Below, in pieces: positions 24,464 to 30,400 of a DNA stretch of 64,000 nucleotides. Every line of letters begins with the position of its first letter. Within the stretch, counting starts at the first letter, position 1. This stretch comes from Moniliella sp. 'wahieum' (taxonomy: Eukaryota). The notes under the pieces were generated by a model. It was not told where the DNA came from. It ran no database searches and was given only the letters and a program-made list of their open reading frames with translations. The DNA is taken from contig RSEE01000027.1 of assembly GCA_003971905.1 (NCBI GenBank), positions 62,001-126,000 on the forward strand, read 5' to 3'. The translations under genes were made by a program, and so were the position numbers.

Positions 24464-27400
24464 CTACCTCCTTGCTCGTCCAGGGGTAGTGCGCTTGGGG
24501 ATCGAGCCGGCCCAGGGCAAGCGGCTAGAGCCACGGAGCTGCTCGTCGATCGCTTGCGCGCACGCCCGGCCTTCGTGGATGGCCCACACCAATGACTGGC
24601 CCCGACGAGCGTCGCCGCACGCCCAGACGCTCGGCACCGAGGTGCGGAATGGACTGGCACCCTTCGAGTCGGCAGCCAAAATGTTCGAGCGGGCATCCTG
24701 CTTGAGCGCCAACGACTTGATTGCCTCATTCTCCGGACCCAAGAAGCCAAGCGCCAGCAGACACAAGTCACACGGCCACCGCTTCTCCGTCCCGGGCACC
24801 TTGTTCATCTGCCACTTGCCACTCGCGTCCTTCTCCCAGGCAACCTCAACCGTGTGGACAGCGACCAGGTTGTTCTCCGCGTCCTTCTCAAACTTGGTCG
24901 TCGAGATTTGGTAGTGGCGCGGGTCTTGACCATAGTGGTCCGTCACCTCAGTGTGGCCGTAGTCGGTGCGGAAGATGCGAGGCCACTGGGGCCAAGGGTT
25001 GTCGCGCGCGCGCGACGCTGGCGGTTGGGGCAGCAATTCAAAGTTCACCACCGAAGCCGCGCCGTGGCGGACCGAAGTACCAATGCAGTCATTGCCCGTG
25101 TCCACCACCAATGACAATCACATTCTTACCCTTGGCATTGTAGAAGTTGCCGTCCTGCAGCCCCGAATCCAACAGCGACTTGGTGTTGGCACCCAAAAAG
25201 TCCATCGCGAACAGCACCCCGTTCGCGTCGCGGCCATCCACCCGCAAGTCACGCGGCCAGGTGGCGCCCGTAGCAAAGACCAGTGGTCAAACTGCTCAGC
25301 GAGCTCCGCCGCATCCACGTCGCGTCCCACCTCGACGCCACACTGGATATCCACACCTTCGGCTTGGAGCAGCTCGGCACGACGCATGACCACTTCCTTG
25401 TCCAGCTTCATGTTGGGAATGCCATACATGGCCAGACCAAACGGACGGTCGGCGCGTTCAAAGACAGTGACCGAGTGACCCGCCTTGTTCAGTTGATCGG
25501 CACATGCCATCCCAGCCGGACCGGAACCGACAATGGCCACCGTCTTGCCCGTCCGGTGCGTCGGCGGCTGCGGCTTGACCAGGCCCAGTTCAAACGCCTT
25601 GTCAATGATCGCCCGTTCCACCGTCTTGATGCCTACGGGCGATTCGATGATGCCCAACACGCAAGCGCCTTCGCAGGGGCAGGGCACACCCGGCCGGTAA
25701 ACTCGGGGAAGTGTTGGTGGACATTAGCTTCCAGTACGCCTCTTCCCAGCGACCGTTGAATACCAAGTCGTTCCACTTGGGGATCACATTGCTGATCGGG
25801 CAGCCCGTGTCAGATTGGCAGAAGGGCACACCACAGTCCATGCAACGCGCCGTTTGCACCTTCAGCTCGGCATCAGTCAGGCGTTGGACAACTCCTTAAA
25901 GTCCTTGGCGCGCACGTTGGGTTGACGGTACTTCTCCGCGCGACGACGGTACTTTTTGAACCCACGCAGCTTGTCCAACTTGGCTAGCGCCGTCTTGGCC
26001 CTCTCGGCATCCAGCAATGCATCTTCAATGTCCACTTCGGCCGGCTCGGCCTTGGCGGCGGCCGCCTTCTCTTGCTCCTGCTGTTCTTCCTCCAACAGGC
26101 TGACTTGGGAGCTGTGCCGCGACAAGGTACCCAACAAGTCGACGTGGCTCGAGCGTTTCTTCTCAGCCGCAGCCTTGGCCGCCTCCTCCTCCAACACACG
26201 CTTGTAGTCGTACGGCATGACCCGCACAAACCGCGGCAAAAGATGATGGAAGTCGCGGATCACATGCTCGGCCACCGTCGAGCCCGTGTAGTGGCGGTGG
26301 TTCTCAATCAGGTTGCGCAGCTCGGCAATCTCGTGAGGGTCCTTGACCGGGCCCAGCTCAACCATCTCGGTGTTGCACCGCGAGTAGAAGTCGCGGTTCA
26401 TGTCCAGCACATACGCAATCCCGCCACTCATTCCAGCCGCAAAGTTGCGCCCAGTGCTGCCCAGCACGACGACGCGACCGCCCGTCATGTACTCGCACCC
26501 GTGGTCCCCGACTCCTTCCACCACCGCATGCGCCCCGAGTTGCGCACCGCAAAGCGCTCGGCGGCAATCCCACGGAAGTAGGCATTACCCGTCGTTGCAC
26601 CGTACAAGCACGTGTTGCCGATCAGAATGTTCTCCTCTGCCTTGAACGCCGAGTTCTTGGGAGGGTAAATGATCAGGCGGCCGCCCGACATGCCCTTGCC
26701 CACATAGTCGTTCGCATCGCCCTCCAGCTCGAGCGTGATGCCCGGCGCCAAGAACGCACCGCACGACTGACCCGCCGATCCCTTAGCATTGATGTGGATC
26801 GTGTCCCGCGCCAAGCCCTCCTCGCCATACAGCTTGGAGACACGGTAGGACAACGTGGCCCCCAGTGCCCGGTCGGTATTGACCACCTCGCAATCCACTT
26901 GGACCGGCAAGCCCTCCATCAACGCCGGCTCAGCTTCTGAGATGAACTTGTTGTCCATCCGCACGTACAGGCGGTGGTCCTGCTGGCGCACCTTGTACGT
27001 CGCCGCACCCGGACGCAGCTCATGCGCCGGCTTAAGGATCGCGCTCAGGTCCAGCTTGGAGGCCTTGACGTTGCGGCCCGTGTAGTCAGTCTTGAGCAGT
27101 CCGACCGACCCACCATCTCATTGATCGTCCGCAGCCCCAGCTTGGCCATGATCCCCCGCAGCTCCTCGGCCAGGTAGTAGAAAAAGTTGATCACATGCTC
27201 CGGCTGGCCAGCAAACTTTTCACGCAAGTCGGGGTCTTGGGTCGCAATGCCCACTGGGCACGTGTTGAGGTGGCAGTGTGGGCCACCACGCCATCGGCCA
27301 GCTGGAAGTGACCGCCCGACACTTCCACACCACGGTATTCCCGCTCGCCGGCCAACTTGGCCAACGCAAACGGCGCCACCTCCAGCTCCGTCGCCGAGGC

Positions 27401-30400
27401 GGGCATCCGCTTCCGCTCATACAGCAAGTAAGGTTGGATCTGCGCCAAGCCCGCGCCGCTGAGCGTCACCACCGAAGCACCCTGCTCCGTAGCCACGCCA
27501 CTGGTAAAGATACCCAGCTCTTGCGCCAGCAAAGCCACATCCTCCACCAGACCCGCATGGCCTTCGGCAGTCTGGGCAAAGACGTACTGTCCACTGGACG
27601 GAGGTAGGATCCGTCCGTGTCGAGCAGACCGGCCAAGATGGCGCGCTTGGCCTCGGCCGAAGGGAAGGCGTGCAGAGGGATGCGGCGCTCCTTCTTGCCA
27701 AGCAGACCCAGCTCCGCCAGCTTGGCCTCCAACGGGTTCCACCCATCGGCAACGACAGTGTGCTTAAACATGTCGGCACGAGCAAATGTGGTGGAGCCGA
27801 CGAGGTCACCAACGGCGGTCACCTTACGGCTGACCACGGTGAGCTCCGCTGCACCCTCAGGACGCGTCGCGTTCAGCTGCTCCACGTACTTGTGCAGCCA
27901 CACGAGCATTTCGGCATCGATGCAGCCAGCGTAGCACGGTGCGCATCGCCATCGCCCAGCCAAGCGCCCACAAAGTACGCCTCGTCTTGCGCCGTCCGCG
28001 CTTGCGCCTGTGCGCTGGGCGGACGAGGCGGAGCTTGTCGTGCGAGTGGCCAATCAGGTCCCGCCGTCACCTCGAACCGGTCACCGTCCAAGACGAGGCG
28101 GCTCCACAAGGCCGTGGTGCTCCGACAGGAGCAAGCTGTTCACCAGCTGCGCCTGCTCCTCGGACGCCAGCGAGAGTGAGACCTTGTGCAGACCACCACA
28201 GTGCACTCGCTTGCCTCTTGGATCTTTTCCTTGAGGAGAGCAAGACGGCCTTGCAGCTGGGCCCCGACGCGGATAAAGGGCTGCTCGGCCGGCGCGGGCG
28301 ATGCAGGCGCCTTCGACTCTTCGGCCAACACCAGGGCATCGACAGGGCCCAGGGCTACTGTGTCGGCGGCGGGCTCGAGGGCAGGGGTGCCAGGGGCGGT
28401 CGAGGAAGACGCATCGGAACCTTGGTCGCTCTCAAGCTCGGGCATGGTCGTGCCCAGGTCAAAGTGAACGTGGAGAGTGGATGTGCGGTGGATGCAACTG
28501 CTCGGGTCAAACGGCGAGGCGCCAGTTGCATGGGCACGGTGACGGTGCCCGCTGAGCAAGTCCTTGGTGATCATCTCCGAGCTAAGCACAGCCGTCAGGT
28601 CAGTATACCGTCTCATATGGGGAAATGACAACCAACGTACCCGATCTTGTCGTCCATATCGTCTTCGCGGTCCAAGTCTTGACGTCGCCCAGCGATACTA
28701 GGTCGTGCATCATGCACGACGCGCGTGCTCCGCCGCCTGGTCCAGCTTCTTGTCCGACACACAGCGCGTGTAAAACTCGACCGTCTTGTTCTCCACCGTC
28801 GGCTCCACACCCACAGCAGCCAAAGAGAGAATGTGGTCGGGCGTGCACTCAAAGTGCTTCTCTGCACCGTCAATGGTGTAGCTCACCTGGTACATCGTTC
28901 CCGTTTCCACGTCGCCCACCGACATGACCAGGACGGGGTTGTTGCTGTCGTCCAGCAGAGCATCACCCAGGGCAATGTCGCCAATGCGCTTCGTCGCACC
29001 ACCAACGGTGCGCACCAGCGTATCGACACCCAAGCACTTGCGCATCATGATGCACCCCATAGCAATCAGAGGAGTGGTGGCAAACCCATACTCTTCGGCA
29101 CCCAGCAGCGTAGCAATGGCCAAGTCGCGACCGGTACGCAACTGACCGTCAGTCTGCACTGTACACGGCCACGCAGGTCGTTCAACACCAGCGTCTGGTG
29201 CGTCTCGGCCAGACCCAACTCCCAGGGCAGACCGGCGTACTTGATGCCAGTCCAGCGCGACGCACCTGTACCACCGTCGTGACCCGAGACCAGCACATGG
29301 TCCGCCTTGGCCTTGGCCACACCCGCTGCCACAATCCCCACACCCACTTCGGATACAAGCTTGACGCTCACCCGTGCGCGCGGGTTGGCACACTTGAGGT
29401 CGTAGATGAGCTGCTTCAAGTCCTCAATCGAGTAAATGTCGTGATGGGGAGGAGGGGAAATAAGACCGACGCCGGCAGTCGAGTGACGCGTACGCGCAAT
29501 CGACGGCGACACCTTGTGGCCCGGCAGCTCTCCACCTCACCCGGCTTGGCACCCTGCGCCATCTTGATCTGCAGCTCGTCACTGTCGGCAAGGTAGTGGA
29601 CGTGACGCCAAATCGGCCGGATGCAACCTGCTTGATCTTGGACCGCAGCGAGTCGCCATTGGGGAGCGGGATGGAGCGTTCGGCATCCTCACCACCCTCA
29701 CCCGTGTTGATTTGCCGCCGAGACGGTTCATGGCAATGGCCAAGGCCGAGTGAGCTTCCATCGAGATGGAGCCGTACGACATGGCACCAGTGCAGAACCG
29801 CTGCACAATCTCCGTCCAGGGCTCGACTTGGTCCACCGGGATGGCACGCACCTTGCTCAAGTCAAAGTCGAGCAAACCACGAAGAGTGGTGGCCTTGATG
29901 GATTGAGTGGCCTGCTTGCTGTACTGGTCCCAGGCAAACTGGTTCTTTTCCCGCGCCGCATCTTGCAAGTTGGCAATGGAAACGGGGTCATTCACGTGCG
30001 CTTCACCTCCATCGCGCCAGTGGTACTCGCCACTCTCGGCCATCACAGGGGGCAGAACCGTGTCCTGCGAGGGCCAGCCGCGGTTGTGGAACTCAAACGC
30101 GTCCATGGCCATCAGTTCAAACGTGATCCCTTGATACGGCTCGCCGTGCCGGCAAAGCAACGATCAATCACCGAATTGTCCACACCGAGTGCTTCGAAAT
30201 CTGCGCACCCTTGTACGATGCCAGCGTCGAGATGCCCATCTTGGACATCACCTTCAGAATCCCGCCATCGACACCGTGCAGCCAATTGTCAACCGCCGTT
30301 TCGAGCGTAATGTTCCTTGATCAAGCCCTCGCGGTGGACCTTGGCCATCACCTCAATCGCAAGCCAAGGGCAGATGGCGGCGGCCATAGCCAGTCAGAGC

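Follow-up and report, generated by a model that had tools for sequence, protein, structure and literature searches.

Nuclear inteins are rare in eukaryotes. In the available part of a 2018 census of eukaryotic inteins, five inteins are recorded for glutamate synthase (GLT), all of them in Pezizomycotina or Saccharomycotina, with Fusarium fujikuroi, Phaeosphaeria nodorum, Podospora anserina, Pichia guilliermondii and Debaryomyces hansenii as hosts (PMC5784728). The same part of the census tabulates eight inteins from Ustilaginomycotina, three in PRP8 and five in RNA polymerase genes, and lists none of them in GLT (PMC5784728). The accessible portions of three further papers are consistent with an ascomycete-only distribution of GLT inteins (PMC1635734, PMC5056185, PMC1508164), and in the available text of the Salmacisia genome preprint the only genes reported to carry inteins are Prp8, RPB2 and an RPB2-like gene. 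Later reports of GLT1 inteins were not found in our literature searches. The ascomycete GLT1 inteins are of full length with a LAGLIDADG endonuclease (553-607 aa in Candida species), and according to the available parts of two papers CHS and GLT inteins cluster together (PMC5056185, PMC5784728). Another described system is PI-SceI, the VMA1 intein of S. cerevisiae (PDB 1VDE, 1LWS, 1EF0), in which a Hint domain is combined with a double-motif LAGLIDADG endonuclease. Here we describe an insert in GLT1, the gene for NADH glutamate synthase, of a fungus deposited as Moniliella sp. 'wahieum'. The gene is contained in a stretch of 64,000 nt, hereafter the window (assembly GCA_003971905.1, contig RSEE01000027.1, positions 62,001 to 126,000 of the forward strand; all positions below are those of the window). 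The insert is most probably a true intein of class 1, with a double-motif LAGLIDADG endonuclease of the PI-SceI type, situated at the site of the ascomycete GLT1 inteins, in a host that belongs to Ustilaginomycotina, and with frame breaks that stem from errors of the assembly.

The borders of the insert were located by alignment to proteins and profiles that lack it. The Pfam Glu_synthase match (PF01645) is interrupted at profile position 319 upstream of the insert and restarts at position 318 downstream of it, and in the alignment to the intein-free GLT1 of Violaceomyces palustris (P0155, 2166 aa) residue 1211 falls at 29034 and the same residue is met again at 27275. Since both the profile and P0155 run on across the insert, the host protein is colinear without it. 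Read on the minus strand, the upstream border at 29036 is ...ATG GGG TGC ATC ATG ATG CGC AAG / TGC TTG GGT GTC GAT..., and the downstream border at 27276 is ...GTG GTG GCC CAC AC / TGC CAC CTC AAC ACG TGC CCA. The insertion thus lies between ...MMRK and CHLNTCP, with borders identical to those in the database proteins P0002, P0004 and P0005 (MRK/CL... and ...N/CHLNT). When 11 missing bases are added and a probable 59-nt intron is removed, the true coding length of the intein is estimated at 1713 nt, corresponding to 571 aa.

The blocks expected for protein splicing were found within these borders (Table 1). The Cys1 codon, TGC, occupies 29036..29034, and the block A that it opens could be aligned with that of seven related inteins; the block B column reads TxxH in 6 of 8 aligned rows. 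At the other end, LADGVVAH ends at 27278 and is followed by CAC-AC-TGC, that is His, a two-base remnant and Cys, where the close homologue P0001 (see below) has AHN/C. Restoring one A would give AAC (Asn), and this was the single best-scoring repair. A preliminary description of the window, made from its letters alone, had proposed an intein that splits a conserved GLT1 motif by about 1761 nt at 27276..29036. Pfam and P0155 returned the same coordinates, and the motifs named at that time (Cys1, TPDH, GAWLGDG, LAGLLDTDG and LADGVVAH) were all found in the places given for them. The proposed architecture of two LAGLIDADG motifs with their acidic residues kept agrees with the alignment of both Asp residues to D218 and D326 of PI-SceI, and insertion point, blocks and homology together support the intein call itself.

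Table 1. Features of the GLT1 locus and of the Rax2-like gene used for comparison, in window coordinates.
Feature	Position	Strand	Basis or remark
GLT1 (NADH glutamate synthase), part alignable with homologues	24470..32572	-	frameshift-aware alignments to P0155 and P0001
N-extein, C-terminal end ...AMGCIMMRK	29037..32572	-	Pfam and P0155 alignments
N-extein spliceosomal intron, 59 nt, GTGCGC...TACTGAC...CAG, in the conserved HNGEINT motif	31692..31750	-	P0155 alignment requires a 59-nt GT..AG gap
Intein-coding insert, 1761 nt as assembled	27276..29036	-	Pfam, P0155 and P0001 alignments
Block A with Cys1 nucleophile (CLGVDT...)	29007..29036	-	aligns with CL(T/Q)VDTLVRT of the GLT1-site inteins P0002 and P0005
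Block B, TPDH (TxxH)	28833..28844	-	alignment with related inteins
Probable spliceosomal intron in the intein reading frame, 59 nt, GTACGT...TACTGAC...TTAG, phase 2	28582..28640	-	inferred
LAGLIDADG motif 1 (GAWLGDG)	27948..27968	-	Asp aligns with PI-SceI D218
Lys codon, column Lys in at least 90% of 28 related inteins	27691..27693	-	
LAGLIDADG motif 2 (LAGLLDTDG)	27610..27636	-	last Asp aligns with PI-SceI D326
Blocks F and G with truncated Asn codon (AC)	27276..27337	-	P0001 there: ...LADGLVAHN/CHLNTCP
Cys+1, first C-extein residue (CHLNTCP)	27273..27275	-	
C-extein	24470..27275	-	alignment to P0001 and tree
Rax2 spliceosomal intron, 68 nt, GTACGT...CTAAC...TAG	40314..40381	-	Rax2 profile stops at 82 and resumes at 84

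The closest homologue, P0001, is an open reading frame (ORF) of 1393 aa from Logan that matched the insert with 80% identity over a stretch of 112 aa, and it runs uninterrupted from inside the intein through HN/C into the whole C-extein. Its intein part (residues 9-447) was searched against 1.84 billion representative proteins and gave 393 matches at E<=1e-3, 41 at E<=1e-10 and 11 at E<=1e-30. The highest identity among the 150 matches listed was 38%, and the nearest inteins of the GLT1 site were 37-38% identical. The best matches were P0002 to P0005 (E=4e-50 to 1e-41); P0002, P0004 and P0005 start with MRK/CL..., all four finish with ...(H/S)N/CHL, and P0004 is located within a Glu_synthase match. 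Judged by these borders, P0002 to P0005 are inteins at the same GLT1 site. The N-domain encoded in the window was 48% identical to that of P0002 and 50% to that of P0005, with a range of 36-50% over the related inteins. By sequence, the P0001 intein part also matched PI-SceI with both catalytic Asp residues aligned (E=1.5e-6), and a profile of the intein family did so at E=3e-11. A chance match is excluded by the E value of 4e-50 to GLT1-site inteins together with that of 1.5e-6 to PI-SceI.

Compared with the ascomycete GLT1 inteins, the insert shares the host gene, the full length (about 571 aa) and the LAGLIDADG endonuclease, and the landmarks CL..DTLVRT, CTPDH, C.CGG, LLLSEHH..DP and YFLG.WLGDG could be matched by eye only to the parts of the published alignments that were available. 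It differs from them in its basidiomycete host, its separate long branch and its probable spliceosomal intron. With PI-SceI it has the Hint domain and the double-motif endonuclease in common, whereas the host gene is another one, the identity over the structural alignment is 17-19%, and in the model of P0001 a long linker of low confidence is placed between block B and the endonuclease. The CHS2 intein of Podospora anserina and its non-allelic relatives resemble the system in that relatives of the GLT1-type inteins also occur in other genes, namely in a kinesin (P0007) and in Sel1/TPR proteins (P0009, P0011); these group in the tree with the other GLT1-site inteins and not with the branch of the window.

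The relative in kinesin (P0007, P0274 and P0275; Logan) lies in the motor domain and ends in ...TVVHN/C, with the Kinesin profile restarting at position 91, and that in the Sel1/TPR-repeat protein (P0009, P0011 and P0276; JGI and Logan) ends in ...TVVHN/CTLGD. Neither extein appears among the host abbreviations of Green et al. in the part of that source available (Prp8, VMA1, DdRP, ThrRS, CHS, GLT, ClpP, DnaB, DdDP, RIR and HEL). Related proteins of Lipomyces tetrasporus, L. chichibuensis and L. starkeyi (P0006, P0008, P0012 and P0014) bear the annotation 'hypothetical' or 'DOD-type homing endonuclease domain-containing'. Three of them, P0006, P0008 and P0012, begin at or near block A, and P0006 and P0008 finish at block G without recognisable exteins. 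The Lipomyces proteins may be mis-modelled inteins or free-standing derivatives.

Other searches added little. The N-terminal intein part of the window had no match among longer proteins (up to 2000 aa), metagenome scans with the P0001 intein part gave no match, and the ESM Atlas returned generic LAGLIDADG clusters only. The sole metagenome match of the window N-domain, L001, was discarded as a chance match of 28 residues on a bacterial contig. The homologue searches took proteins up to 2000 aa and the search for named exteins reached 2438 aa, and an intein-bearing GLT1 (about 2700 aa) is beyond both. P0001 itself was absent from the output of the representative search, and intein-bearing proteins may sit behind intein-less cluster representatives. 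Because of these length limits and cluster representatives, absence from other basidiomycete records cannot be claimed.

A few observations weigh against a genuine intein and have to be set beside this evidence. The terminal Asn codon is broken as assembled (AC, 27277..27276), with a one-base offset between the frames of intein and C-extein. P0001 was the only close relative found, and it is without the N-terminal 130 aa of the intein. Finally, the Pfam scores stayed below the respective cut-offs for Hom_end (18.6/21.1), LAGLIDADG_3 (18.6/22.5) and Hom_end_hint (20.1/32.1). The GLT1-site inteins P0002 and P0005 are likewise under the Pfam cut-offs for intein and endonuclease, and the sub-threshold scores reflect the limited reach of the models, a score above the cut-off not being a trait that defines the class.

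The host was placed with the exteins. The best named matches to the P0001 C-extein came from 11 named species of Ustilaginomycotina at 71-77% identity, with Violaceomyces at 77%, Malassezia nana at 76%, Ceraceosorus at 75%, and Ustilago, Tilletia, Thecaphora, Sympodiomycopsis and Jaminaea at 71-74%; exteins from Agaricomycotina and Pucciniomycotina were 64-68% identical. Of the 1145 codons of the N-extein that could be matched to P0155, 913 were identical. A quick maximum-likelihood tree of exteins with 36 rows joined the window and P0001 as a pair (Shimodaira-Hasegawa-like approximate likelihood ratio test (SH-aLRT) 100) inside a clade of 29 Ustilaginomycotina rows (100), with two further sequences as their nearest neighbours and no named genus close by. 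Besides the window and P0001, this tree held 34 of 119 listed matches, that is the best 28 minus P0167 plus 7 outgroups, with the other 85 omitted. On these extein comparisons the host is a member of Ustilaginomycotina (Basidiomycota), a fungus related to smuts. The GLT1 proteins of the 11 named Ustilaginomycotina species measure 2139-2169 aa, in a search that reached 2438 aa, and because of these lengths they are taken to be without the intein. The preliminary description had suspected a basidiomycete host and, with it, a new phylum for an intein known from ascomycete GLT1 genes. The extein identities and the tree specify that host as Ustilaginomycotina, the ascomycete hosts it had named are found in the available part of PMC1635734, and within the literature searched the phylum record holds, the five tabulated GLT inteins all being ascomycete in the accessible part of the census (PMC5784728). 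Among the known GLT1 inteins the element is a new and deeply diverged member, and it extends the family to another phylum.

The history of the intein within this host lineage was approached through its divergence from P0001. The two inteins were identical at 328 of 430 positions (76%), against 879 of 937 (94%) for the C-exteins, and the endonuclease core at 77% was not below the rest of the intein. The guanine plus cytosine (GC) content of the intein is 0.633, compared with 0.60-0.62 in the exteins, and the GC content at third codon positions (GC3) is 0.74-0.79 compared with 0.80-0.83; the composition of the intein is adapted to the host. In a quick intein tree of 19 rows, which used 17 of the best 46 matches, the window and P0001 formed a long separate branch, with long-branch warnings, and the other GLT1-site inteins were mixed with those from kinesin, Sel1 and Lipomyces proteins. 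With such a long branch, a recent transfer that started from the sampled alleles would be disfavoured, and either old vertical descent or an old transfer would fit. On balance, we lean towards an old basidiomycete lineage of GLT1 inteins, present in at least two species of Ustilaginomycotina, fully adapted to the codon usage of the host and with an intron acquired in its own ORF.

Whether the endonuclease of such a lineage still works bears on how the element has been maintained. GDG and the residue corresponding to D326 are nearly invariant among 28 related inteins, and the window retains them. A structure was predicted for the P0001 intein part, to whose core the window core is 77% identical. 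The AlphaFold model had a mean predicted local distance difference test (pLDDT) score of 74.5, with means of 87-98 for 10-residue blocks over residues 201-400 and values <50 for residues 1-34 and 53-101. A Foldseek search with this model returned PI-SceI first (E=5e-12), followed by I-DmoI (E=8e-7) and I-Tsp061I, and the predicted endonuclease fold has the double alpha-beta-beta-alpha-beta-beta-alpha arrangement of PI-SceI and I-DmoI. Endonuclease activity of the window copy is plausible. One residue of the homologue weighs against this: at the family-conserved Lys, which the window keeps, P0001 has Gln (residue 308, position 300 of the intein part), and activity may already have been lost in part of the lineage.

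It is quite possible, albeit in our estimate somewhat doubtful, that the intein splices while its endonuclease is dead, the element persisting by vertical inheritance without homing since its precise loss is hard. The Gln of P0001 at a column that is Lys in at least 90% of the related inteins would fit such a history, as would a difference of 24% between the inteins of two hosts whose exteins differ by 6%, a composition fully adapted to the host, and an intron within the intein ORF, which speaks for long residence. On the other hand, the window retains the Asp of either motif as well as the conserved Lys, the endonuclease core is as well conserved between the two hosts as the rest of the intein, and, in contrast to mini-inteins, the endonuclease has lost none of its parts.

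Between the N-domain and the part of the intein covered by P0001 lies the segment GTACGTTGG...TATACTGACCTGACGGCTGTGCTTAG (28640..28582), which is probably a spliceosomal intron within the intein. Its removal joins ...DDMDDKIG(GG/C) in frame to SEMITKDLL. The TACTGAC branch site and the length of 59 nt are those of the intron in the GLT1 N-extein, and the 5' hexamer GTACGT is that of the intron in a Rax2-like gene at ~39845..42667. The GC content of the segment is 0.49 compared with 0.59-0.61 in the flanks, and GC3 in its only open frame is 11/21 compared with ~0.75-0.8 in coding sequence (P=0.019). Further, the P0001 ORF starts 8 codons before the predicted 3' splice site, which is exactly where it becomes homologous to the window. 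The eight upstream residues of P0001, MLPLAFFY, are encoded by pyrimidine-rich codons and have only one residue in common with the sole frame of the window that is open there.

Two results weigh against the intron. Intron-like motifs are not enriched in the window, with 8 occurrences compared with 6.5 in shuffled sequences, and alignments to distant GLT1 inteins did not discriminate between a model with the intron and one without it (277/276, 179/169 and 248/248). The segment could instead be coding in frame 0, with an extra single-base deletion error within ~28650..28616. That frame is open throughout 28640..28582, one more deletion error would suffice, about 6.5 splice-like motifs are expected by chance, and the distant homologues do not decide the matter. 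However, the coding alternative requires three missing bases in ~115 nt, it is opposed by the lower GC and GC3 of the segment and by the onset of both the P0001 ORF and the homology at the predicted 3' splice site, and the signals and length fit the two verified introns of the window, those of the GLT1 N-extein and of Rax2. We therefore regard it as unlikely and retain the intron as the probable reading. No report of an intron inside an intein ORF was found by phrase search or in the available parts of intein papers and their supplements, although absence is not provable in this way. Other intron-like motifs in the window, recognised by motif only, lie at 37768..37723, 36515..36458, 9676..9622, 10611..10657 and 55396..55456.

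In the assembled sequence no single frame runs through the insert, which contains at least 8 frame breaks. The alignment to P0001 gave 7 frame-changing sites in the C-terminal part of the intein (28581..27276) and 8 in the C-extein, at least one further break lies between ~28730 and 28641, and the alignment to P0155 gave 24 sites in the N-extein, all of them deletions of 1-2 nt. All 39 frame-changing events are deletions (33 of one base and 6 of two), with no insertion among them. Their density is similar in the intein (7 per 1306 nt) and in the exteins (32 per 6342 nt; binomial p=0.83). Reading through the C-extein revealed no stop codon in 946 residues. In ADE12 (34346..35455), 5 kb away, the Adenylsucc_synt Pfam profile is continuous across three overlapping frames, and overall about one base is missing per 200 nt of coding sequence of the assembly. 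Because the breaks are deletions only, equally dense in the exteins, free of stops in the C-extein and alike in ADE12, the best reading is that the assembly has dropped 1-2 nt at each of them by error, and not that the element has decayed.

Deletions of this kind are spread across the whole window, for example in ADE12 and in eIF3L/Paf67 (1676..3904), with about one per 140-350 nt in GLT1, and single genes of the window appear as ORFs that overlap in successive frames. The preliminary description had rightly called for correction of the indels, albeit their spread over the whole window and the probable intron had escaped it.

Two points count against an origin of the breaks in the assembly. 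The stretch of ~90 nt at ~28730..28641 must lack two bases, which is a locally high density, and deletions fell in homopolymers at 9 of 12 sites compared with a null expectation of 0.54 (p=0.115); since this test was not significant, no homopolymer signature is claimed. The opposite possibility, that intein and GLT1 are a decaying pseudogene in which the frameshifts are real and no enzyme is made from the locus, could draw on the number of breaks in the insert and on the broken Asn codon. It is nevertheless very improbable and was rejected: both exteins and ADE12 share the breaks, neither insertions nor longer indels occur, the C-extein lacks stops and is 94% identical to P0001, and decay would add stop substitutions and spare the neighbouring housekeeping genes. 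Assembly errors are therefore kept as the explanation. The assembly is nonetheless too error-ridden to judge the integrity of the element from the window alone, and no frameshift in it can be read as biology without checking. That the whole insert is an RNA intron which is never translated is scarcely conceivable and was rejected as well. Nothing was found in its favour; the borders are TGCTTG... and ...CACAC and not GT..AG, the intein blocks and a coding-type GC3 of 0.74-0.79 are kept, and P0001 passes from intein into extein within one ORF.

For a genuine intein, the following course of expression is proposed. GLT1 would be transcribed and at least two 59-nt spliceosomal introns cut out, one in the N-extein and, probably, one in the intein ORF, and a precursor of about 2700 aa would be translated. 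Cys1 would undergo an N-S acyl shift, the N-extein would be passed to Cys+1, and the terminal Asn would cyclise. Cys+1 presumably belongs to the C-x5-C-x4-C ligand motif of the [3Fe-4S] cluster of GltS, and joining of the exteins would make this motif contiguous again in the enzyme. The presence of a [3Fe-4S] cluster in GltS is stated in the available part of a published source (PMC8097209). The free intein of about 571 aa could then cleave intein-less alleles and be copied into them.

Two other features of the window were recorded. An open frame of 680 aa at 21741..23783 on the minus strand is rich in Pro, Ser and Ala and lies in a stretch with a GC content of 0.58-0.72; at E<=1e-5 no Pfam profile matched it. 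It might encode a disordered protein, or the high GC might simply have favoured an open frame there. At 56735..57847 on the plus strand a retrotransposon gag domain was found (PF03732, E=3.8e-6), adjoined by long ORFs up to ~59.7 kb, and this region is probably a long terminal repeat retroelement.

The history of the GLT1 inteins, be it an old origin followed by loss in most hosts or movement from one lineage to another, had rested on five ascomycetes. A deeply diverged allele in two species of Ustilaginomycotina adds a second phylum, and it argues against the sampled ascomycete alleles as the source of a recent transfer. Of all its features, the internal intron alone could raise the finding above a distribution record. 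If true, it would be a clear mark of the long nuclear residence of a selfish protein element, it would be carried along by any homing event, and it would place two splicing systems in series, so that glutamate synthase would need nested RNA and protein splicing.

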